This document shows, piece by piece, positions 862-35,687 of a stretch of DNA of 37,590 bases. This DNA is from a virus (taxonomy: Duplodnaviria; Caudoviricetes), in the IMG/VR virus record IMGVR_UViG_3300034095_000063, positions 1 through 37,590 of that record, one strand, 5' to 3'. The translations under genes were made by a program, and so were the position numbers. Every line of letters starts with the position of its first letter. Positions within the stretch are counted from its first letter, which is position 1. Below the pieces are notes generated by a model. That model saw only the letters and a list, made by a program, of their open reading frames with translations, searched no databases and had not been told where the DNA came from.

Positions 862-1638
862 TTAATTTAAATAATCTTTGAAAGCTTGTGCATATTTTAC
901 TAACGTAGTTCCAGTAAGACCTGGAGCAGTGTTGACTTCAAATAAGAAGACTTTGTTGTCACGTTCTCGATAACCAATGTCAACAGCACCGAAGTCTAGA
1001 CCTAGAATCTTAACAGCCTTGATAGCTGCTTGCTCTATTTCTACTGGATAGTTAATGTCAGCACGAGCGTAGACATAACCGTTAGAGTGATTACGAATGC
1101 CTGTGTCACCACCAGTCCAATTAAGTCTACGTTTCTTTTGCTGAACATCTATGACCGACTCTCTGAATACATGAACACGATACTCATACTTATGTTTAGT
1201 ACCAAGAGTATACAAAGGTGCTTCGACTAGATCAATGATGTTCTTAGCTATTACTATACCACCTCCGCTGTGACTTGTCAAGGAAGTTCTACAATAGATA
1301 GACTCCTTGCCTAATCGTTCGCCCCCTTCTGTAGCTATGTAGAGCATGTTAGATGCATCATACCTAGTGGTACAATAGTTGGGTAGATAGGGATACTCAT
1401 TCTCATACAACAGATCAAAGGTCTTAAGCTTGTTACATGCAATAGCAATAGCACTGTGCTTATTTAGATCCTTCTCCGCATAAGGTACACTCTCCGACGG
1501 AGTAGAGTTGCCCCAGTTAATGATGATGTCCCGTCGTTTAGCCTCATATGTAGGGCGGATACGTTTAATGCCTAGAGCATTAGCTAGAGCTTTACCTGAC
1601 ATAGAGCCCATCTTGTATGGGAATAGTTTAAAAGTCAT
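862..1638 (-). CDS. ATP-grasp ligase (RimK/glutathione-synthetase-like)
   Basis: INWG, NKLKTF, EYRVHV, LGLDFGAVDI and FEVNTAPG motifs typical of ATP-grasp enzymes. Confidence 0.85.
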   Translation of the reverse strand: MTFKLFPYKMGSMSGKALANALGIKRIRPTYEAKRRDIIINWGNSTPSESVPYAEKDLNKHSAIAIACNKLKTFDLLYENEYPYLPNYCTTRYDASNMLYIATEGGERLGKESIYCRTSLTSHSGGGIVIAKNIIDLVEAPLYTLGTKHKYEYRVHVFRESVIDVQQKKRRLNWTGGDTGIRNHSNGYVYARADINYPVEIEQAAIKAVKILGLDFGAVDIGYRERDNKVFLFEVNTAPGLTGTTLVKYAQAFKDYLN

Positions 1639-2008
1639 ACACTACCTCCTTCTGTTTGAGTTTAGCTAACTGACGTTGCTTGAATCTAGTCTCCATCTGT
1701 TTAATCTTGATTGCAATACCACGCAACCTAGGATCATCAGGTAAAGGGTTAGCCTTAACATCTATACCAAGAGGACCTAACTTAGCTTCGTATGCATCTA
1801 GATTATACCCTCGAGAGGTAAGACAGATACCACCACATGTGTGGAAGTTCTGCTTATCTTCATGATCCCATTCAATAGATATTATACCCTCTACACCTCT
1901 ATCCATATGAAACTTAAGGACAGTCCCTGTCATACCTGCTAAGAAAGTTACATTATCATACTCAAAGTCATCTGTTACTACAACTTTATCACCTCTATTA
2001 TATTCCAT
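1628..2008 (-). CDS. Hypothetical protein
   Basis: 126-aa ORF tightly packed within the operon. Confidence 0.7.
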   Translation of the reverse strand: MEYNRGDKVVVTDDFEYDNVTFLAGMTGTVLKFHMDRGVEGIISIEWDHEDKQNFHTCGGICLTSRGYNLDAYEAKLGPLGIDVKANPLPDDPRLRGIAIKIKQMETRFKQRQLAKLKQKEVVYDF

Positions 2009-2010
2009 GA

Positions 2011-2919
2011 TTAGATTACTCCATAAGGATAAACAACTACTGGTTCTACTGGTGCCTCATAATCTTCTTCTAATAACTCAATGTCCATGAACTTGATGTT
2101 GTAGAGGAAGTTAGGAACATCAGAACCTTCATCAGCTGAGTCAGCCATTAAGTCTACTGAGTAGTCACGATTAACTGCAACGATCTCCCATACAGAATCT
2201 TTAGGGAAGTATGACCTAGTGCCAGCATCATACTGTCCACTAAGCAGAGTCACTAACTCACCTAGTGCTATGTTCTCTTTCTTGTAAGCCCAAGTTTGTT
2301 TGTTATCGTAGTAACGATTAGTAAGAAAAGAAGCTTGACGAGGTGGATAATATGTGCTAGGTGGTGGTGGAACATAAGGTGGTGGTTTCTTGTAACTAGA
2401 ATTAGAATACCATACATCGTTATCCCATACACCCTTGTCTTCATTGAAGATCTTAGTATTACCTGTGTTATCCATAAAGATTAGCTTGGAGTAACCGATA
2501 CGAGCCTCAATAAGTTTTTGTACTGGATCTTGGAATAAACCTAAGTTGCCCCACTTGTCAACGAATGGTTGTAGTATATCCTCATTGAATAACCAAGTGT
2601 CAGACTTAGCTGGATCAGTGTACCCTGAGATCATACCATTGTGCACGAATGCAAAGTTGTCATTGATCTTGTATGGATGACAGTTAGCCTCATTGATTAA
2701 GCCGTGAGTCTTGATACGGAAATGTATCACACACTCTTTCTTCTTATCTCTACGGTAAGACTTCCAGAAGTCAGCGAAAGAGAAGAAACCTTTCTTGACA
2801 TACAGTTTGTCATTCTTATGGAACATATAGCCAGCACCATCAGAGTTAGCTTTGTAACACTGAGCTAGAGTTTCTTGAGGAATCTCTTTACCCTCTGGTT
2901 TATAAATAGCGATACACAT
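2011..2919 (-). CDS. Class II (Ntn) glutamine amidotransferase
   Basis: N-terminal MCIAI nucleophile Cys; NSDGAG, HFRIKTHG, NCHPY, HNGMI and SDT motifs. Confidence 0.88.
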   Translation of the reverse strand: MCIAIYKPEGKEIPQETLAQCYKANSDGAGYMFHKNDKLYVKKGFFSFADFWKSYRRDKKKECVIHFRIKTHGLINEANCHPYKINDNFAFVHNGMISGYTDPAKSDTWLFNEDILQPFVDKWGNLGLFQDPVQKLIEARIGYSKLIFMDNTGNTKIFNEDKGVWDNDVWYSNSSYKKPPPYVPPPPSTYYPPRQASFLTNRYYDNKQTWAYKKENIALGELVTLLSGQYDAGTRSYFPKDSVWEIVAVNRDYSVDLMADSADEGSDVPNFLYNIKFMDIELLEEDYEAPVEPVVVYPYGVI

Positions 2920-4472
2920 TATGCGAATCCTTTCAAGCAGTTAGATAATTCAGGATATGATTTACGATTGTTAAGGACCCAATGCATAAAGCTACGATGT
3001 CCTGTAAGTTGTTTGAGTGGCATATTAACTTGAGCTGGTTGACAGTAGTCAGTCAATGCTTGACAGAACTCTAGTCTAGCAGAGAACTCCTCCCAATTCT
3101 TAGGTGTGCTAAAGATACGGAACTCAATAGTATCACGATTAGATAAGTTAAGTGCATTGTATCGTTCACCTTGTTGCCCATTAATGAATGGGAATGTAAC
3201 AGATCGACCAGTAATCCTAGCATACTGATTGTCAATACGACCAGCGATGTGAGCAATGAATGCTTTGTTATCCATACGATTAAGGAACTCTGTCATCTTA
3301 CCAATAGTAAATACATTAAGAGGCTTACGACTCACATGCACATGCATACCTGTGTTCTTGTCAGGGAATAGACCAAGAGAACCATATGAACTATAGAACT
3401 TCTTGAACTCTTCTAAGTGGATATCTAGAGTAGCAGGACAAGTAACAATCTCAAAGCCATTCTTGATAGAGCCATCGTGTTTCATAATGGCATGACCCTG
3501 TAAAGCTTTACCTACCTTGATCTTAGATACATCACGATCAGATGACTCATACTCTAACTCTATACCTAGATATACAGTAGAAGGTTTAACATTCTTAGCC
3601 TTGAACTTAAGAATCTCAGGAACTTTGGTGCTATAGTTATGAATCCTGTATAGAGTCTCATTACATTTGAAACATGCCCCATCTATGATAGATAAGTCAG
3701 GCACTTCGTTGTGGCATACAGGACACTCACACATAGTAACTTCACTACGTTTGTATACTCTACCTTGGATGAAGCACTCGTCATCACGAAGAAAGATATA
3801 GCCGTGACGATACTCGTGACGAGAGAATCCATAATCAGTAGGTGAAAGAGCACCATTTACCATACAAATACCTTCAGAGAACTCATAGTTTCTACCTAAG
3901 TAATAAGGTAATACTGTTCCTGTCAAGTGGCATTTGAATAATTCTATATTATAGTTGTTGCTCATGTGGTTTACAAGAGCATCAGCATCTGCAACAATTG
4001 CATCAGGTTGAGCAGATATAGCTATGTTAAGTAACTCATGAGTGTAACCACTCTTACACCATCTCTCTGAGTTTAGACGTTTAGATATTGCTTTGTATAT
4101 ACCTTTACGAAGTGCCCCAGTCTTTGATGTTAGTTTAACGGGATTGGATTTGTAATACATAGCATCTATTATAGCATGCTCACCATCCCAACTGTTACGA
4201 ATCTTAACTAAGCCAGCAGCTGCTGCTATAGTTGAATTGTAATCACGATACCAACCAGTGTGACTAATTGATATTACATGATACCATTCTTCATTGATAA
4301 TTGCCATATCTCTTGTAAGAGCCATAGCACTACCTTTGACATAATATTTCTTAAGTGTTACTTCTGTTCCATAACTATTGTAGCCCTCTACAATCTCCAT
4401 CTTAAAGTCTGGATGTAGATTAGGGATTTCATAATCATAGTTCCTAAATTGACTTTGGGTAAACGGTCTCAT
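2919..4472 (-). CDS. Putative amidoligase (COOH-NH2 ligase, glutamine-synthetase-like fold) with a long N-terminal extension
   Basis: GIELEYE, HDGSI..GFEIVT, TGMHVHV, RYNALN and TIEFRIF motifs; CPVC...CFKC just upstream of the ligase domain. Confidence 0.82.
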   Translation of the reverse strand: MRPFTQSQFRNYDYEIPNLHPDFKMEIVEGYNSYGTEVTLKKYYVKGSAMALTRDMAIINEEWYHVISISHTGWYRDYNSTIAAAAGLVKIRNSWDGEHAIIDAMYYKSNPVKLTSKTGALRKGIYKAISKRLNSERWCKSGYTHELLNIAISAQPDAIVADADALVNHMSNNYNIELFKCHLTGTVLPYYLGRNYEFSEGICMVNGALSPTDYGFSRHEYRHGYIFLRDDECFIQGRVYKRSEVTMCECPVCHNEVPDLSIIDGACFKCNETLYRIHNYSTKVPEILKFKAKNVKPSTVYLGIELEYESSDRDVSKIKVGKALQGHAIMKHDGSIKNGFEIVTCPATLDIHLEEFKKFYSSYGSLGLFPDKNTGMHVHVSRKPLNVFTIGKMTEFLNRMDNKAFIAHIAGRIDNQYARITGRSVTFPFINGQQGERYNALNLSNRDTIEFRIFSTPKNWEEFSARLEFCQALTDYCQPAQVNMPLKQLTGHRSFMHWVLNNRKSYPELSNCLKGFA

Positions 4473-5091: not shown

Positions 5092-5271
5092 TTAAATCTC
5101 CTTAATATAATTCATAGAGAAAGAGGAACAATCCCCATATGTTTGGGATAACTTCTTATTAGCCTGTTTAACTGCATCTTCCATAGATTGAGCTTCTATA
5201 TAGAACTCTACTTCTCTATGGAACTTATTAATTCTACTTATAAACAACACTTCATAACTAATCAACCCCAT
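5092..5271 (-). CDS. Hypothetical protein (59 aa)
   Basis: 3' part of track ORF 5092..5379; probable start MGLISYEV at 5271. Confidence 0.55.
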   Translation of the reverse strand: MGLISYEVLFISRINKFHREVEFYIEAQSMEDAVKQANKKLSQTYGDCSSFSMNYIKEI

Positions 5272-5350
5272 ATATGACCGTCTCTTTCTCTCTCTACAAT
5301 TAATAGATAACTCGTTAGAGAGAACCGAAGTCCTCTCCAACTTAGCGTGA

Positions 5351-5587
5351 TTAGGCTGTAGTGCCATTACTGCGTTCACGAGCTTCAGCTAATTTCTTTG
5401 CTTGCGCACGAATGTTTGTTATTTCATCACGAGCATCCATTAGCTCTTGAAACAGAGGCGATTTGTAACGAAGCATAGTAGCTAACGCATCACCGAGCAA
5501 CTGCTCTGCTAGGTATAGTTTAAGTCCGCTGTTAGCGTTTGCCATTACCTTGTTGTATTCATTGAAATCAAATTGCTGTGTTGCCAT
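5351..5587 (-). CDS. Hypothetical helical protein (78 aa), probably the first early gene; lies in the left arm of the rod
   Basis: SD AAGGAG 7 nt before ATG; intact ORF MATQQFDFNEYNKVMANA... Confidence 0.8.
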   Translation of the reverse strand: MATQQFDFNEYNKVMANANSGLKLYLAEQLLGDALATMLRYKSPLFQELMDARDEITNIRAQAKKLAEARERSNGTTA

Positions 5588-5817
5588 GGTAGTTCTCCTT
5601 AGTTAATGCGGCGGTTGCCACAGCTGTTAGAAACACAAAGACGAGGCGATGTCAGGTGATCTAGCCTTAGCAGGCTGCTGAGACGTAGAACAATGGCGTG
5701 CCTTTTCGACATTGTTCTAGGTCTCTTGCAGATGCTTAGGCTAGAGCACTTGATGTTGACTCGGCTTTGTGTTTCTATCAGCGCATTGGGGCAACAGCTG
5801 CATTAACTTAGGAGAAC

Positions 5818-5997
5818 TTGGCAACACAGCAATTTGATTTCAATGAATGCGCTTACAACAAGGTAATGGCAAAGGATAACGGTGGTTACTTAAACTTCCT
5901 AGCAGTGCTGTTGCTCGGTGATGCGATTAGCTACATGCTTCGTTACAAATCGACTCTGTTTCAAGATAAAGCTAATGCGATGGTCGTGATGAAGTAA
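5818..5997 (+). pseudogene. Degenerate inverted copy of the 78-aa gene (open for 59 codons from TTG)
   Basis: Reads (M)ATQQFDFNECAYNKVMAKDNGGYLNFLAVLLLGDAISYMLRYKSTLFQDK...; the ATG is lost through a 4-nt deletion. Confidence 0.55.
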
Positions 5998-6547
5998 CGA
6001 ACTTCGATGCGCAAGCTAAGAAATTAGTTGAAGCTCGAGGGTTGAACGCAGTAATGGCACGGCATCAGCCTAATCACGCTAAGTTGGTTAGAGGACTCGG
6101 TTATCTCTAACTAAGAGTTATCTCTCTATAAAATTACTTTAAACAACAACAACTTATCTAGATATTAATACAACTACTAAATACCTATAGAGGTACCACA
6201 CTACACATATCTTCTTCACCTAACAGACAAGACAATATGATACGCATGAGTAACAGCTAGACAATGCTACTTAACATTGACTTCGTTACTAGGTCACACT
6301 ACTAGATCAACATAGGGGGGGGGTGTATATAGCACGGATGTGGATTTTAATGATGTATCACAACACACACAATAAAGGGTAAAATAGAACGTCTCTGCAT
6401 AATGTGCTATCTTTGAACAAGAGAGGAGGGAAGGAGAGGTGATATAGACTATATCGATCTGCGACATTACTACTTAGTAGAAATCTCTTTCTATTTTAAA
6501 ACAGGAGTTTTAGAAGTAGAGTTTCTCTAATTGATCAATATAAGAAT

Positions 6548-6576
6548 ATTATATCATATTTCTAATCTAAAGTCAA
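6548..6576 (-). promoter_or_regulatory. sigma70-type leftward (early arm) promoter
   Basis: TTGACT-17 nt-TATAAT with extended -10 TG. Confidence 0.8.
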
Positions 6577-6624: not shown

Positions 6625-6653
6625 TTGACTTTTAGTTTCTTCTATGTTATAAT
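6625..6653 (+). promoter_or_regulatory. sigma70-type rightward promoter (packaging operon)
   Basis: TTGACT-17 nt-TATAAT with extended -10 TG. Confidence 0.8.
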
Positions 6654-7184: not shown

Positions 7185-7655
7185 ATGGAAGAAACAATTT
7201 TAGATACGGCAAAGGCTACACAAAAGCCTCGTAGAAAAGGTAGGAGAAGTAGAGAGGAGACTAACAAGATTAGAGCTGCTCTTGGGTTAACCGTTAAGGT
7301 TGCTCCCCCTAAAAGGGACTACACTCCACCTGCTATTCTACCAGAGAAGACTAAGGCTAAGTCGCAAGAGATCCTTGCTGCTATGCTTACAGGTAAGAGT
7401 ACTCTTGTAGTAAAGAAAGTAATGGACAAAGCTTTAGATGACAACGACTCTGATCAGATGGCTTGTCTCAAACTGCTTATAGATCGTATGATCCCTACAT
7501 CTTATTTTGAGAAAGAGAATAAGGGTAACAAGGGGATTACTATTCAGATTATGGGCGTAGGTGAAGTAGGCATTAAAGAAAATGATGAAGAACCTATAGA
7601 AGCTGAGTACGTAAGTACGGATGAGTATGTAGAGGAGGAGCCAATAGATGGCTAA
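7185..7655 (+). CDS. Probable terminase small subunit
   Basis: Position immediately before TerL; basic N-terminus, helical core (ALD...QMACLKLLIDR). Confidence 0.65.
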   Translation: MEETILDTAKATQKPRRKGRRSREETNKIRAALGLTVKVAPPKRDYTPPAILPEKTKAKSQEILAAMLTGKSTLVVKKVMDKALDDNDSDQMACLKLLIDRMIPTSYFEKENKGNKGITIQIMGVGEVGIKENDEEPIEAEYVSTDEYVEEEPIDG

Positions 7656-12311: not shown

Positions 12312-13223
12312 ATGGCTTTAGGCTCAAATCACGTAACAAATACTACAGGCGCATCCTTCATCCCAGAAATTTGGAGTGATGAGATTATCGCTGCTTATAA
12401 GAAATCTCTTGTAGCAGCTAACCTATTTAAGAAAATGTCTTTCACTGGTAAGAAAGGTGATACTATCCATATCCCTTCTCCTACTCGTGGTGTAGCTTCT
12501 CTTAAAGCTGCTGAAACACAAGTAACTCTACAAGCAGCTACTGAAACAGAAGTAAACGTATTGGTAGATAAACACTACGAATACTCACGTTTGATTGAAG
12601 ATATTACAGAAGTACAAGCTTTATCATCTCTTCGTCGTTTCTACACTGAAGATGCTGGTTATGCTTTATCTAAACAAGTTGATACTTCCTTGATCCAATT
12701 AGGTCGTACTTTCAACGGTGGTTCTGGTGTTACTTACGGTGGTGCTTACATAGGTGGTGACGGTACTACTGCTTACACATCAGGTTCAAGCAATGCTTCT
12801 GCATTAACTGATGCTGCTATCCGTCGTACAATCCAACGTTTAGATGACAACGATGTTCCTATGGATGGTCGTTTCTTCTTGATTCCTCCTTCAGCACGTA
12901 ACACATTGATGGGTTTAGATCGCTACACTGAACAAGCCTTCGTTGGTGAAGTTGGTAATGGCAACACAATCCGCAATGGTGAAATCGGTAACTTGTATGG
13001 TATCCCTGTATTTGTATCAAGCAACTGTGATACTGCTACTGGTGGTGCTCGTATTGCTTTACTAGGTCACAAAGATGCTGCCGTGTTGGTTGAACAACAA
13101 GGTGTTCGTTCACAAACTCAATACAAACAAGAATACTTAGGTACTCTATACACTGCTGATACATTGTACGGTGTTAAAGAGCTACGTGACAACGCTTGCT
13201 TTGCATTAGCTGTTCCAGCCTAA
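12312..13223 (+). CDS. Major capsid protein
   Basis: FIPEIWS, GDTIHIP, GEIGNLYGIPV and DTLYGVK motifs; followed by a terminator. Confidence 0.92.
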   Translation: MALGSNHVTNTTGASFIPEIWSDEIIAAYKKSLVAANLFKKMSFTGKKGDTIHIPSPTRGVASLKAAETQVTLQAATETEVNVLVDKHYEYSRLIEDITEVQALSSLRRFYTEDAGYALSKQVDTSLIQLGRTFNGGSGVTYGGAYIGGDGTTAYTSGSSNASALTDAAIRRTIQRLDDNDVPMDGRFFLIPPSARNTLMGLDRYTEQAFVGEVGNGNTIRNGEIGNLYGIPVFVSSNCDTATGGARIALLGHKDAAVLVEQQGVRSQTQYKQEYLGTLYTADTLYGVKELRDNACFALAVPA

Positions 13224-13238
13224 TAAGTAATTAGGTTT

Positions 13239-13275
13239 AAACCTCTTACCCACACGACTCGGGTAGGGGGTTTTT
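13239..13275 (+). terminator. Rho-independent terminator
   Basis: AAACCTCTTACCC / GGGTAGGGGGTTT stem followed by a T-run after the MCP stop. Confidence 0.8.
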
Positions 13276-13302
13276 GCATAATTACTTAATAGGAGAAGTA
13301 TA

Positions 13303-13486: not shown

Positions 13487-16261
13487 ATGGCGATATTTAG
13501 AGGTCCAGGAGGTAGTGGTGATGCTACGGCAGATACTTCTAATAACTCCATTACAGCTGTTAATGCTGCCAATGCTGCTCAAGCAAGTGCTACAGCTGCT
13601 GCTGCTAGTGCTACTTCTGCTAGTAACTCTGCTAGTTCTACAGCAGGTGATGTAGCTGCTGCTTCTGCATCTGCAACTAGTGCCTCTAACTCAGCCACTA
13701 CTGCTACTACTAAAGCTTCTGAAGCTAGTACTTCAGCAACTAATGCTGCTACATCAGCATCTACAGCAACTACCAAAGCAAGTGAAGCAGCTACTAGTGC
13801 GTCTAATGCAAGTACTTCTGCAGCTACTGCTACAACAAAGGCAAGTGAAGCTGCTGCTAGTGCTACCTCTGCTTCTGGTAGTGCTACTACAGCAACTACT
13901 AAAGCTAGTGAAGCTTCTACATCAGCTACTAGTGCATCTACTAGTGCTACAACAGCTACAACAAAAGCAAGTGAAGCAGCTACTAGTGCGTCTAATGCTG
14001 CTAGTTCAGCAACAAGTGCTTCAACATCTGCTACTAATGCAGCATCTTCAGCTACAGCAGCTAGTGGGTCAGCTACAACAGCTTCTACACAAGCAACTAA
14101 TGCAGCAGCATCAGCTACTACAGCCTCGACACAAGCCACCAATGCAGCGGCATCTGCTTCAAGTGCCTCAACATCTGCTGCTACAGCCACAACACAAGCT
14201 ACTAATGCTAGTTCTAGTGCAAGTGCTGCAAGTGGTTCAGCTACAACAGCAACTACACAAGCAGGAATAGCTACTACTAAAGCAGGAGAAGCTTCTACCT
14301 CTGCTACTAACGCTGCATCTAGTGCTTCTACTGCTACCACTCAAGCTACTAATGCTAGTACTAGTGCTACAAGTGCTTCAGGTTCTGCTACAACAGCCAC
14401 AACTCAGGCAGGTATAGCTACTACTGGAGCAACTACTGCAACTACACAAGCAGGTATTGCTACCACTCAGGCTACTAACGCTGCAACATCTGCTTCTACA
14501 GCAACTACACAAGCTGGCATAGCTACTACACAAGCTACTAATTCTGCTACAAGTGCTGCTGCATCTGCTGCTGCTCGTGATGCTGCCTTAGCTGCTTTAG
14601 ATTCATTTGATGATAGATATTTAGGTTCTAAGAGTTCAGATCCTACTTTAGATAATGATGGTAATGCTTTAGTATCAGGTGCTTTGTATTTTAATACAAC
14701 TACTAATAGTATGAAAGTATTTGATGGAAGCGTTTGGTTATCTGCTTATGCTTCTTTGTCAGGTGCTTTATTATCAACAAATAATTTAAATGACCTAACT
14801 AGTATATCAACTGCTAGAACTAATCTTGGTTTAGGAACTCTTGCTACGCAATCAGGTACTTTTAGTGGAACTTCTAGTGGTACTAATACTGGAGACCAAA
14901 TTAATATAAGTGGTAATGCTGCAACTGTTACAACTAATGCTAATTTAACAGGAGATGTTACATCTGTTGGTAATGCAACAACATTATCTGCAAGTGGTGT
15001 AACTGCTGGTTCATATACAAATACAAATATTACTGTTGATTCTAAAGGTAGAGTTACAGCAGCAGCAAATGGTTCTGCTGGAGGAGTTACTAGTGTAACT
15101 GCAACATCACCAGTAGTATCTTCAGGTGGTGCTACACCAGCTATAAGTATGGCAGCAGCTACTACGTCAGTTAGTGGGTATTTAACATCTACTGATTGGA
15201 ATACATTTAATGGTAAACAACCTGCAGGGTCTTATGTAACAGTAGGCGGTGCATTAGGTACACCATCAAGCGGTACTTTAACAAACTGCACATTTCCAAC
15301 GCTTAACCAAAACACCACAGGCAGTTCGGGTTCATGTACTGGTAACAGCGCAACGGCTACAACTTTAATTGGTGACCAATCAAATTGGGCATCATACCGT
15401 TCAAGTGCCGTGGCAAACATGTTAAGTTGGAAAAATTACGGTAATAGTCATATTATATTTGACGCTTCAGCATCAACATCGCCAACTGGAAGTGCGGTAA
15501 ATAACACAAATGCTCAAATTGCTTGGACAGGAACATATCCTACTTTAATGGGTTGGAACGGGACTAACACTTATGGTGTTAGGGTTGATTCAGCTAGAAT
15601 TAGCGATTCAACTTCAGGTTCATCAGCATCATGCACAGGCAACGCGGCAAGTGCATCATCTGTTGCCGCATCAGGCATTACAGGTCAAACAGGGATGTGG
15701 ACAAGTGCCGCAAGACCAGGGGCTTATCGTTTATATCGTAATGATAGTAATGACCCTTATAATATCCAAACAACTTGGAGTGCGGATGTAAGTGGATATT
15801 GGTCTTTGCGTGGATATTATAATGATACCTATCATGCCCCTTGTTATGTTGGATATGCTGGATATTCAAACACAGCAGGTTCAGCACCAGCAAATGGAGG
15901 CACATCTGCAGCTTGTTCAGGTAATTCAGCAACTGCTACAGCACTATCCACAGCTTCAGGTTCAGCACCATCATATTCAGCAAGGGCTTGGGTAAACTTT
16001 AACGGTACTGGTACAATTGCTATTCGTGCAAGTGGTAATGTCAGCTCATTGACAGATAACGGAGTCGGTAATTACACAGTCAATTTTACAACAGCAATGC
16101 CTGATGCAAATTATTGCACAACAACTGCATTAAGCAATGCAACTTATGCCCCTGTTAATATGATAGGAACATATACAACTACATCAGTACAGTTACAGAA
16201 TTTTGCTGATACAGTAGCGGCAAGGGATTTTACAACTGTAACTGCCGCTATACATAGATAA
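13487..16261 (+). CDS. Long tail fibre protein
   Basis: Ala/Ser/Thr repeat shaft, FDDRYLG...DNDGNAL and ITVDSKGRVT fibre motifs, C-terminal AWVNFNG domain. Confidence 0.85.
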   Translation: MAIFRGPGGSGDATADTSNNSITAVNAANAAQASATAAAASATSASNSASSTAGDVAAASASATSASNSATTATTKASEASTSATNAATSASTATTKASEAATSASNASTSAATATTKASEAAASATSASGSATTATTKASEASTSATSASTSATTATTKASEAATSASNAASSATSASTSATNAASSATAASGSATTASTQATNAAASATTASTQATNAAASASSASTSAATATTQATNASSSASAASGSATTATTQAGIATTKAGEASTSATNAASSASTATTQATNASTSATSASGSATTATTQAGIATTGATTATTQAGIATTQATNAATSASTATTQAGIATTQATNSATSAAASAAARDAALAALDSFDDRYLGSKSSDPTLDNDGNALVSGALYFNTTTNSMKVFDGSVWLSAYASLSGALLSTNNLNDLTSISTARTNLGLGTLATQSGTFSGTSSGTNTGDQINISGNAATVTTNANLTGDVTSVGNATTLSASGVTAGSYTNTNITVDSKGRVTAAANGSAGGVTSVTATSPVVSSGGATPAISMAAATTSVSGYLTSTDWNTFNGKQPAGSYVTVGGALGTPSSGTLTNCTFPTLNQNTTGSSGSCTGNSATATTLIGDQSNWASYRSSAVANMLSWKNYGNSHIIFDASASTSPTGSAVNNTNAQIAWTGTYPTLMGWNGTNTYGVRVDSARISDSTSGSSASCTGNAASASSVAASGITGQTGMWTSAARPGAYRLYRNDSNDPYNIQTTWSADVSGYWSLRGYYNDTYHAPCYVGYAGYSNTAGSAPANGGTSAACSGNSATATALSTASGSAPSYSARAWVNFNGTGTIAIRASGNVSSLTDNGVGNYTVNFTTAMPDANYCTTTALSNATYAPVNMIGTYTTTSVQLQNFADTVAARDFTTVTAAIHR
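13570..14575 (+). repeat. Degenerate ~42-nt (14-aa) coding tandem repeats in the tail fibre
   Basis: Recurrent ATTATTKASEA(A/S)TS and ATTATTQAGI units; boundaries approximate. Confidence 0.8.
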
Positions 16262-32959: not shown

Positions 32960-33247
32960 CTAGAAGGGAACATCGTCATCTCCTAAAGAAGTATTATTAA
33001 CTTCCGTGGTATTGACCCATTGTTCGTAACCTCTTTTATCTTCTTGAACCTCTACATCTACTTCGGTACCCTTAGTCCAACTACTCGCAGCTTTGTACAC
33101 ATGTTTGTTTTTCCAAGAGAATAATCTCCAGGATTTAACTTGGTCCTCAGTATCTCTAAAGATAACTTCTATGGCTTGATACTCTAAACCATTAGCTGCT
33201 TGATGGGCTGTGGGGGTACCTACATCCACAATTTTAATTCTAAGCAT
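32960..33247 (-). CDS. Hypothetical protein with an SSB-like acidic tail (DDDVPF)
   Basis: 95 aa; C-terminal DDDVPF. Confidence 0.65.
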   Translation of the reverse strand: MLRIKIVDVGTPTAHQAANGLEYQAIEVIFRDTEDQVKSWRLFSWKNKHVYKAASSWTKGTEVDVEVQEDKRGYEQWVNTTEVNNTSLGDDDVPF

Positions 33248-33957
33248 TTACTTCCTCCATGTTACCCCAATCAGGTCCTACTTCACACTGAACCCTCATA
33301 GGTAGGTTAAACTCCGTACCAAATATCTTTTTAAAGTTAGCTGGTACATCGTTGAAACAGTTATTAACTAACTGCACTAGACTAATATTATCCCATACTT
33401 TGGGATCAAAGTCAAGTATTATTGAGTCGTGTACTGTGTTTACCATTAAGACTCCTTCTTTACCTTTCAATCTGTTGCGTAGTGATACTCGAGCTAGAGC
33501 CATGAGATCAGCACCTAGCCCCTGTACTGGATAATTAAGTATCTTAGTACGAGGGAACTTAACCTTACCATACTTAACCTCAGGCTCAAACTTATAGAAT
33601 CTACCAGTAGGCATATCGATACGACCATCACGCATAGCACGTTCTAGCAGTTGATCATGCCATACCTTTAGTCCTGCGTACTTTTCGTAGAACTGGTCAA
33701 TGACTCCTTGCCAGAACGTTTCATCTCCAATACTTGAGAAGTTAAGATCATTCGCATAAGAGTACGCTGATCCTCCGTAGATGAGTCGAAACACGAACGT
33801 TTTAGCAATAAGTCGACTTGGTAGTCCAAATCGCTGTTGGTTGTCTGCATGTTGGTCTACTCCTAAAAGAATCTCATCGATAGCTACTTGATCTTGACTT
33901 AAGTATGTGGCTCCTACCCACTCAAGAAAGTTGTTTTGCATCCGCTTGGAGTAACAT
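33240..33957 (-). CDS. polA: Family A DNA polymerase, C-terminal (palm/fingers) part; frameshift near 33925
   Basis: Motif A MLLQADAKQL(EW) from ATG 33957; motif B RLIAKTFVFRLIYG; NYPVQG; motif C TVHDS; a 4-nt excess separates motif A from the main ORF. Confidence 0.85.
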
Positions 33958-34406
33958 CACTTTATATCCTCCTTCGAGAGAACTGATTTAGCGAACTGAA
34001 TTAACTCTTCTCTTGTAGAGTTCCACTTCATAGAGTTCGCTAAGGTAGATATAATTTCTATATTATCTTTACTATAACCTAATGAAGGGTCAATCCGATC
34101 TATTGAGGGAGAATGTTTCCTATCCCCAGCTATTGTTAATGGTACTTGTAAATAAGGGCATAACTCAGGAATAACTATATCTTCTTTAGTTAAAGAAAAC
34201 TCTATTCCTTTTTGTTTTGCTCTTAATTTTGCATATTTAAGTAGATAGTGTATAGGATCTACTACTTTAGTTTTATGATAGTAATCTCGTGCTCCTTTCT
34301 TTTTAGCTTCTCTATTCTCTTCAGCATATTTTTTGCGTTGTTCTGAATATTTATCATAGTTTTTTAAATACTCTTCTCTTCTTTTTACTGGATCATAAGG
34401 TTTCAT
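33957..34406 (-). CDS. HNH homing endonuclease-like protein
   Basis: CPYL...SIDRIDPSLGYSKDNIEIIS..AN.MK motif; visibly more AT-rich than the flanks. Confidence 0.85.
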   Translation of the reverse strand: MKPYDPVKRREEYLKNYDKYSEQRKKYAEENREAKKKGARDYYHKTKVVDPIHYLLKYAKLRAKQKGIEFSLTKEDIVIPELCPYLQVPLTIAGDRKHSPSIDRIDPSLGYSKDNIEIISTLANSMKWNSTREELIQFAKSVLSKEDIK

Positions 34407-34431
34407 TGGATTCTCCTAGTGTTATACTAAT

Positions 34432-34460
34432 AGTATACCATAAGTTTCCATTCTAGTCAA
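34432..34460 (-). promoter_or_regulatory. sigma70 promoter inside the HNH cassette
   Basis: TTGACT-17 nt-TATACT with extended TG; the -10 overlaps the palindrome TATACTA-A-TAGTATA. Confidence 0.75.
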
Positions 34461-34535
34461 GTACTTTCTGCTTGTAGTAACATCTAGTAGAGATCCTCCC
34501 ATAATCGTTCGATATAAATATCTTTCTCGTATGCA

Positions 34536-35687
34536 TCAAGTAAAGCGAGAATAGAAGAGACCTTTGATTCCTCCGTCGAAGTTTTGCAGGTTTGGTTTAC
34601 TACTTGACAGACGTCCTGTACGAGCGACGCATTGATTAAGTTGTCCATGTATCTTGTTCTCCTTCCAGTTAAGTTCAGCGGATAGCTTGAGCAATCCTCT
34701 GTAGTACGTTGATACTCTCTTCTCTAACTCTGATCTCTTTAAGAGAGTTTGAATAGCTTTGAGAGAGTGTTGATTCCTACTCTTGAGAGACTTAAGTGTA
34801 GCCTCATCAGTAGAGAAGTAACCTTCTTTAGCTAACTCTGAACCTCTAGGAGGAGTAAAGAGTCTTGGTAATTCAACTACATAGTCTTCCCACTTTTCTT
34901 TGACTTCTCCTTTACGAGCACCTGTCTTGTAAAACCCAGCAGGTACTTTGCGAGAAAGCTTAATGCTTCCGCCATAAAGTAAGCAACTGAGATGATCACC
35001 GCTATTGGGATTAAAACTATCACAGTTATGGTACTGATACAACTCGTTATCCAACTCGACGATTTGTGCATCCAATTCATTTGCTAATTCCTCACTCTTT
35101 GTTGCGTTATATAATAGACCATTGTATTCCATTTCTTGTAGTACAAGTAGGTCTTGATTGTGTAAACTAATTAGTCGTTGTAGTGGTAGACCACCAGCTT
35201 TAACTTCTTCTAACTGTTTGAGATATACTTGGTACGTTAGATCTAAGTCACCTTGTAGATACTCTTCTAAGATAGATTTAGGTATGTCTGGTGTATCTAT
35301 TCCATTCTTCCAATACTCAGTACTAACCACATCAAGCTTAGTACCCAGCCCATAATGAGCAGCGACACCATTGAGAGATGGGTAGCTTGCCTCTTGTCCA
35401 GTAAGTATAAAGTGTACAAGCTGACAATCCCAAATACGTTTAGAGCCAAAAGAAATTCCATATCTGTTTATCCAATGTAAGTCAAACTTAATGTTGAACC
35501 CTATAAGTATATCACAATCATCAATCCTTTGTTGGATCTCTTGAAGCTTAGGTACATAGGGATCATGAGAGTATTCTATATCGAATAGTTTATCTCCGAT
35601 GCCTACATAGCACAGCTTGTTAGTCTGATCAAAAGGATTACCTTTGTTAGAGATTGTTGTTTCTACGTCTAGTACTAACTCTTTCAT
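34536..35687 (-). CDS. polA: Family A DNA polymerase, N-terminal part (3'-5' exonuclease and thumb)
   Basis: ExoI DVET, ExoII GFNIKFD, ExoIII YLQGD; FNPNS; TGRLSSSKPNLQN. Confidence 0.9.
   Translation of the reverse strand: MKELVLDVETTISNKGNPFDQTNKLCYVGIGDKLFDIEYSHDPYVPKLQEIQQRIDDCDILIGFNIKFDLHWINRYGISFGSKRIWDCQLVHFILTGQEASYPSLNGVAAHYGLGTKLDVVSTEYWKNGIDTPDIPKSILEEYLQGDLDLTYQVYLKQLEEVKAGGLPLQRLISLHNQDLLVLQEMEYNGLLYNATKSEELANELDAQIVELDNELYQYHNCDSFNPNSGDHLSCLLYGGSIKLSRKVPAGFYKTGARKGEVKEKWEDYVVELPRLFTPPRGSELAKEGYFSTDEATLKSLKSRNQHSLKAIQTLLKRSELEKRVSTYYRGLLKLSAELNWKENKIHGQLNQCVARTGRLSSSKPNLQNFDGGIKGLFYSRFT

Follow-up and report, generated by a model that had tools for sequence, protein, structure and literature searches.

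An 820-nucleotide fold-back around the first early gene of a podovirus, with mismatches that favour folding of the template strand

Conjugative plasmids enter cells as single strands and are known to have promoters that work on single-stranded DNA; in a double-stranded DNA phage such promoters would not be expected. That tailed phages inject duplex DNA counts against the reading of a single-stranded template in such a phage. Rod-like RNAs are known from HDV, the Obelisks and 6S RNA, in which a long imperfect rod contains or opposes an open reading frame. In the Frpo promoters, as laid out in excerpts from two reports (PMC9849209; PMC11541004), a fold on the single-stranded DNA template brings a -35 element and an unpaired -10 element together. 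A literature search that covered few subscription journals, and many of its sources in part, returned no description in tailed phages of fold-backs like the one described here.

The DNA analyzed here (the window) is the whole stretch of 37,590 nucleotides of IMG/VR virus record IMGVR_UViG_3300034095_000063, a 37.5-kb podovirus genome that was assembled as a circle with a terminal overlap. It is the genome of a tailed phage, carrying genes for terminase, DNA polymerase and helicase, and is not the leading region of a conjugative element. The window is related to the Methylophilales phages MEP401 and MEP402, its helicase being 62% identical to that of MEP401, and lake water was the source of all 18 DNA runs among the matches listed. 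In the early region, genes for an amidoligase, a class II glutamine amidotransferase and an ATP-grasp protein are clustered on the minus strand (862-4472). The DNA polymerase is apparently split into two open reading frames with a frame of 149 amino acids between them (33240-35687, minus strand), as for MEP401, and a probable tail fibre of 924 amino acids (13487-16261, plus strand) contains long Ala/Ser/Thr repeats of 7 residues. A stretch of 203 nt is repeated at 15912 and 20256 (80%), and a 33-bp imperfect inverted repeat that follows the probable capsid gene (13219-13293) is likely a terminator.

On the plus strand, positions 5305 to 6123 (about 820 nt) form an imperfect fold-back, the rod, which mirrors the first early gene of the phage. 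Because an imperfect backwards copy of this gene is present, the template strand of the gene can fold into a hairpin of 820 bases. In a self-alignment the left arm (5305-5695), which holds the template strand of the gene, its leader and a candidate promoter, pairs with the right or mirror arm (5710-6123), a degenerate sense copy that would serve as non-template strand in the fold; the apical loop of 14 nt between both arms (5696-5709) varies among relatives. The 424 alignment columns consist of 351 Watson-Crick pairs, 43 gaps and 30 mismatches, and the rod is made up of 46 interrupted helices with a longest perfect run of 30 bp. Within the mirror arm, a frameshifted sense copy of the gene that lacks an ATG (5818-5997, plus strand; a 59-aa frame starting with TTG) is probably no real gene. 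An internal-loop motif, AGCAGGCTGC / TGCAGATGCT, located at window positions 5669-5679 and 5726-5737, is common to the window and a distant clade (L053, L065, L080) and is replaced in some close relatives. No known RNA family or tRNA was found at the rod, the sole Rfam match being RsaH (E=0.53), which is below the cut-off and outside the rod. Neither rod nor gene had a blastn or tblastn match among cultured phages in a DNA search that covered phages, not plasmids.

Read on the plus strand, the mismatches of the rod comprise 10 G.T, 10 G.A, 7 T.T and 3 G.G, and A.C, C.T, A.A and C.C do not occur, which amounts to a polarity of 30/30 (two-sided binomial P=1.9e-9) or, for isolated mismatches alone, of 25/25 (P=6e-8). 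Three of four alignment scoring schemes gave 30/30 and the fourth gave 30/31 with one C.T. The original prediction had counted 26 differences by hand (10, 7, 6 and 3 of these classes), which is right in kind and slightly low. Also, the plus strand folds better than the minus strand under RNA parameters (-573.8 versus -524.6 kcal/mol) as well as under DNA parameters (-373.0 versus -334.2 kcal/mol), and the rod fold stands at z=-59 relative to shuffled sequences. The mRNA strand is not the one optimized for folding, as it would be for an inhibited mRNA of the type I toxin-antitoxin kind, with 0 of 30 mismatches in its favour. The claim that the plus or template strand is the one built to fold is therefore borne out by the mismatches and energies, and by the homologues considered below.

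That such polarity is unlike the neutral decay of an inverted duplication had also been proposed, and simulations as well as the mismatch types agree. In 20,000 trials of simulated substitution without strand bias, all 30 mismatches were favoured in none; with a simulated deamination bias, this outcome was reached in 2 of 20,000 trials at a bias of 5x and in 1,268 of 20,000 at 20x. Strand-biased deamination fails to explain the polarity because 20 of the 30 mismatches are of the transversion type, which deamination does not polarize (0.5^20 = 1e-6). Neutral decay and deamination bias were thus ruled out as sources of the polarity. A more elaborate version, in which a neutral inverted duplication is kept similar by template switching and is subject to strand-biased mutation, could draw on multi-base block changes in both arms that look like inter-arm copying. 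However, the simulations and the 20 polarized transversion-type mismatches speak against it, as do mismatches that are invariant among relatives and the recurrence of the structure in distant lineages, and the chance that it is right appears negligible. An assembly artefact was ruled out as well, because pairing of the arms is 83% with many indels, relatives carry versions of their own, and an independent DNA run contains both arms.

Rods of 808-832 nt were found in all 10 viral loci that carry the gene. In 8 distinct close haplotypes, the favoured mismatches amounted to 31/34, 26/29, 33/35, 34/37 and 38/38 in five of them, and the polarity was weak in the other three (20/32, 28/45 and 13/21). 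Homologues therefore share the bias, as do the distant clusters and MEP401 described below, though it is weak in 3 of 8 close haplotypes. The arms co-vary: among 9 haplotypes, the window included, at least two different Watson-Crick pairs occur in 51 of 381 paired columns. Over the same 381 pairs, 155 positions of the right arm are variable versus 76 of the left arm, and within the gene the variable sites are distributed as 20, 7 and 5 over codon positions 3, 1 and 2. Five rod mismatches are invariant across all 9 haplotypes; mismatches common to at least three haplotypes are favoured in 40 of 48 cases, versus 39 of 69 for singletons, in counts that project the pairing of the window onto the other haplotypes and contain some misalignments. 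The difference between shared and singleton mismatches, the invariant mismatches and the variation at third positions together suggest that new mismatches arise without bias and that stable ones persist.

The gene enclosed by the rod (5351-5587, minus strand) is the first early gene and encodes a 78-aa protein of an uncharacterized phage family; the gene is represented in RNA libraries and is preceded by the ribosome-binding site AGGAG (5595-5599, minus strand). A three-helix fold was predicted for the protein with a pLDDT of 91, and a profile search gave 66 hits. No significant match was obtained in PHROGs, Pfam, PADLOC, PDB sequences, Foldseek-PDB or VIA. The best structural match (Z 7.3) corresponds to generic helical hairpins, matches in BFVD are uncharacterized phage proteins, and the top score in the Atlas was 0.77. 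Judging by the position of its gene, one might guess at a role in early host takeover or in end protection.

A run of nine G residues (6315-6323, plus strand; a C-run on the early sense strand) lies 191 nt beyond the rod and is followed by two divergent strong promoters, which mark the junction of early and late arms. Both promoters are of the sigma70 type and conserved in 18/18 sequences, one being directed leftward (6548-6576, minus strand) and the other rightward (6625-6653, plus strand) before the packaging and structural genes. According to portions of a study on cobaviruses (PMC6775973), their genomes end at the early/late junction, with short terminal repeats and a G+C-rich 5' part. The LUZ24 record starts with a C-run and ICBM1 has C-runs within its first 45 nt. 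Among relatives, 3 of 37 listed locus ends, some of which are not true contig ends, coincide with the equivalent C-run, one of them belonging to a 36.7-kb contig, and several loci run through it; for these reasons we assume with moderate confidence that the G-run is the left terminus and likely the physical left end of the linear genome. The leftward promoter points at the G-run and, if the latter is the terminus, would direct transcription out across the terminal repeat, possibly in connection with packaging or once the ends have been joined.

Metatranscriptomes were available as six runs. X19 and X20 stem from one sample, and contigs are identical between X21 and X22 and between X23 and X24, so that these runs represent 2-3 independent RNA sources. 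RNA contigs cover the gene arm in all six runs (5298-5638), in X19 with contigs from several phage variants; over 5649-6297 there were none in the six runs, and DNA run X5 covers both arms. The rightmost RNA ends are at 5590, 5608 and 5638, the last of which, from X21/X22, is situated 17 nt past a predicted transcription start near 5621. The adapter remnant found at 5608 speaks for sense mRNA (one molecule; two control remnants in genes of known strand fit a stranded library). The ends of RNA inside the rod agree with a start of transcription on the folded strand; they are a hint at the level of contigs, compatible with rare RNA from the mirror arm. These data also bear on the idea that minus-strand RNA reading through from the promoter at 6576 folds back and silences the gene, with the mismatches rendering the fold metastable. 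Such a role would make sense of a conserved leftward promoter that points at the rod, and the minus-strand RNA still folds at -525 kcal/mol. Yet 30/30 mismatches are of the worse class on that strand, no RNA was seen over the mirror arm and the triloops described in the next paragraph occur on the other strand; we find this scarcely credible.

In order to distinguish a DNA fold from an RNA fold, the mismatch spectrum was pooled from 137 distinct isolated contexts in 18 rods, resulting in counts of 44 G.T to 6 A.C, 29 G.A to 14 C.T, 18 T.T to 11 A.A and 14 G.G to 1 C.C. The preference for G.A over C.T (10:0 in the rod of the window) is energetically neutral under RNA parameters (ddG=0 in 26 of 29 contexts) and favoured by -1.6 kcal/mol under DNA parameters; that of T.T over A.A (7:0 in the window) is slightly better explained by RNA than by DNA parameters. 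In addition, C-GNA-G triloop hairpins, which as GNA mini-hairpins are much more stable as DNA according to parts of one report (PMC13037366), were present in 21 of 36 terminal regions examined, where distinct hairpins numbered 36 on the template strand versus 5 on the sense strand (P=8e-7, for related and not independent regions), relative to a background of 1-2 per 36-40 kb. RNA-type GNRA tetraloops in these 36 regions amounted to 19 on the template versus 10 on the sense strand, and no C-GNA-G triloop occurs in window positions 5101-6400. The G.A bias favoured under DNA rules, the DNA-type triloops of relatives and RNA on the gene arm only make it more likely that the folded molecule is DNA rather than RNA. 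Mismatch spectrum and triloops are indirect hints that the strand carrying the rod may be single-stranded in the cell. The mismatch spectrum can also serve more generally to tell from sequence which strand folds, and whether as DNA or RNA.

The original prediction had left open whether a plus-strand RNA or a single-stranded DNA rod is under selection; the DNA option fits best and the RNA rod is unsupported. For an RNA that starts near 5306 and is selected as an HDV- or 6S-like molecule, a primer or an antisense precursor, one can cite that the G.U, U.U and G.G biases fit RNA, that X21/X22 have an ambiguous loose end at 5433, readable as plus-strand RNA or as DNA, and that very stable duplex RNA can be under-sequenced. 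A TACAAT at 5295-5300 (plus strand) had been proposed as start signal for this transcript: the element is present, and TACAAT or TAAAAT is kept in 8 of 10 relatives, but it has no good -35 and received no promoter-like call, lies in the upstream region of the next minus-strand gene and is not accepted here as a promoter. Against such an RNA stand the right arm without RNA cover in six runs that cover the left arm, a G.A bias for which RNA energetics offer no basis, the DNA-type triloops of relatives and the lack of an Rfam match, and we judge it quite improbable. Similarly, of the suggestion that host polymerase copies the rod into mRNA in the manner of HDV or 6S RNA, the copying of a folded rod fits best and the likeness to those RNAs does not hold.

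A candidate split promoter was located in the inner stem of the rod. Its genomic half would consist of CTGACA, 17 nt and TTCTAA (5627-5655, minus strand) and its mirror-arm half of TTGATG, 17 nt and TG-T-TTCTAT (5750-5778, plus strand). In the clade of the window, invariant blocks 17 nt apart are separated by a spacer that co-varies, reading (C/T/A)TGAC-..-TTCTAA on the genomic strand and TTGAT-..-TG-T-TTCTAT on the mirror arm; the -35-like box CTGACA becomes TTGACT or TTGACG in two relatives. With a rough promoter matrix of sigma70 frequencies, TTGAT-..-TTCTAT is the top-scoring site on the 3' arm in 9/9 sequences of this clade, the score being 6.2 for the window, whose candidate -10 TTCTAT lacks A-11. 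An invariant T.T mismatch (5627/5778) supplies T-7 in the fold only. The start, which we place near 5621, coincides with a conserved small stem-loop (5607-5622, minus strand) that is predicted to form the 5' end of the mRNA and has a core invariant in 9/9. No good sigma70 site is evident on the 3' arm in the distant homologues L066, L070, L072 and L078.

Sister phages were defined by the gene found at 7185 in the window, and 28 of 32 such loci found were examined. Those without a rod and with sufficient upstream sequence have another first gene of 46 aa, followed by one of 242-285 aa. The latter encodes a conserved all-helical early protein (2600-3364 in L016) with 40 homologues and with no family or fold match, its 254-aa version included. 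In sister-phage leaders the template strand folds better in 8 of 9 cases (two identical; without shuffle control), and where the first gene is a different one, a hairpin on the template strand takes the position of the rod. A branched version of about 280 nt was noted at 3606-3890 in L016 and also in L017, L019, L026 and L034, with TTGACA on one arm and TATAAT on the other. Of six such hairpins tested, five have TATAAT on the 3' arm, mostly unpaired and 19-20 nt after a -35-like box; on their 5' arm the complement of TTGACA is present, and no -10 follows it. The sister-phage hairpin is the clearest candidate for an Frpo-like promoter in this group.

Distant homologues were collected with a motif scan, giving 192 loci of which 85 were confirmed by HMM and fell into 27 clusters, 22 of them with enough upstream DNA. 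In 18 of these 22 evaluable clusters, folding is better on the template strand. Long-range pairing of the gene start occurs in 10 of 22, all 10 template-favoured, and 12 of 22 have no fold-back over the gene start, which in several cases reflects a distance of 1.0-1.8 kb between gene and G-run. Of 11 lineages inspected, six (the window, L070, L078, L137, L160 and MEP401) have a mirror copy of most of the gene, which in five of the six extends to a terminator-like hairpin; the remaining five lineages mirror part of the gene. In most lineages with a rod, the latter is 160-220 nt from the G-run. The cultured Methylophilales phage MEP401 (L043, OP830906) has an unannotated rod of about 830 nt (about 42530-42987 plus 1-330) that encloses gp01, a remote homologue that folding brought to light and a profile comparison confirmed (probability 92.5, E=4.9e-7); 234 of 300 nt of its gene are mirrored and the polarity of the rod is 69/84. 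The main text of the MEP401 paper gives no match for 'hairpin' or 'promoter' (PMC10580990). A comparable long rod is absent at the corresponding ends of MEP402, MW202796, QDWS535, ICBM1, VpV262 and LUZ24. A scan of bacterial genomes yielded 34 loci, of which one was confirmed (L217); as this locus is in a metagenome-assembled genome and possibly a misbinned phage contig, no host was found.

Our main reading, for which we estimate a probability of roughly 0.55, is that the template strand is rendered single-stranded at the genome end and folds into a pseudo-duplex, which host RNA polymerase transcribes. In such a course of events a linear genome with short terminal repeats would have its left end at the G-run (6315-6323). 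The rod would then belong to the first kilobase and to the strand whose 3' end is located there, and until the ends are joined the strong promoter at 6576 would be at the opposite end of the genome. The template strand may be freed by 5'-3' resection at entry or may persist as an unreplicated 3' tail during replication. The fold would then reconstitute a promoter within the inner stem, from which transcripts would start near 5621. We propose that the mirror arm spans the gene to beyond its stop codon because the polymerase needs a non-template strand to displace and release the mRNA. N4 polymerase on single-stranded templates yields RNA:DNA hybrids, as stated in part of PMC4496689.

The same single-stranded DNA fold could have a DNA-metabolic job, such as capping or protection of a 3' tail, limiting resection, or priming of replication or of concatemers, and the gene would be transcribed from the duplex. 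Frpo itself reportedly also primes replication, an observation said to go back to Masai and Arai in 1997. All the DNA-type evidence from mismatches and triloops fits such a job, as do the spacing of 160-220 nt from the G-run in most lineages with a rod, the lack of a universal promoter on the 3' arm and the mini-hairpins found at phage single-strand priming sites, as mentioned in sections of PMC13037366. It leaves unexplained why the mirror arm tracks ribosome-binding site, gene and terminator exactly and why TATAAT is unpaired in sister phages, and TTCTAA, the -10 in the duplex, is poorer than its counterpart in the fold; we think this explanation unlikely, though worth keeping in view. Transcription of the template rod might also come about without resection if an asymmetric cruciform as in N4 were extruded from supercoiled duplex DNA and the host single-strand binding protein melted the weak minus-strand hairpin. 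The same asymmetry has been described for the early promoters of N4 (PMC4496689, in part), and a stable plus strand combined with a weak minus strand would explain the polarity. However, N4 hairpins have few base pairs, unlike a rod with its many interrupted helices, 14-nt loop and 30-bp longest run, large branched apical domains in many homologues make extrusion unlikely, and a site near a free end would hold supercoils poorly; we consider a cruciform highly improbable.

Returning to transcription of the folded template strand, a broader claim would be that widespread double-stranded DNA podoviruses of abundant aquatic bacteria run their first kilobase as single-stranded DNA by end resection and express the first gene from a self-folded pseudo-duplex that spans the whole gene. 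We regard this generalization as possible but doubtful. If true, a phage would turn an attack on its DNA ends, or its own end processing, into a switch for its first protein. The cultured pair of MEP401 and OM43 strain FZCC0133 carries the structure, which makes the question directly testable.

When compared to described systems, the rod differs from HDV, the Obelisks and 6S RNA in being encoded by phage DNA, in the mirror arm on which no RNA was seen and in its DNA-type mismatch spectrum. With Zobellviridae-type podoviruses, as far as portions of the reports on the MEP401 group (PMC10580990) and the cobaviruses (PMC6775973) describe them, the window shares the two-arm genome, the split family A DNA polymerase, the C-rich start of a putative terminal repeat and the long gene-free leader, whereas the left ends of ICBM1 and VpV262 are without such a rod. 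The terminal repeats of the jumbo phage Matilda, known from part of their description, were considered as a counterpart and rejected for their different architecture. Like the early hairpin promoters of N4, covered by part of one report (PMC4496689), the rod has a template hairpin that is more stable than its complement and would belong to the genome end that enters first, and C-GNA-G triloops also occur in the leaders of relatives of the window. In contrast, N4 hairpins are tiny and the rod is two orders of magnitude longer; also, the virion RNA polymerase of N4 has about 3,500 aa (PMC4496689, in part) and the longest open reading frame of the window 981 aa. Closest are the Frpo/ssi elements of F and ColIb-P9, which according to extracts from PMC9849209 and PMC11541004 are likewise template-strand fold-backs before the first-expressed genes at the end that comes first, and whose -35 and unpaired -10 meet only in the fold, as they would in the sister phages. 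The rod differs in belonging to a tailed phage with double-stranded DNA, for which entry as a single strand is not known, in mirroring a whole gene over 820 nt where in Frpo/ssi the promoter alone is folded, and in the non-canonical -10 of the window. On balance we lean towards the view that the rod works like an Frpo promoter; being off conjugative elements, it is no member of that group. If double-stranded DNA phages have at their genome ends an Frpo architecture that has grown to mirror a whole gene, this would imply an undescribed single-stranded phase in their life cycle and a means of linking gene expression to the processing of DNA ends.
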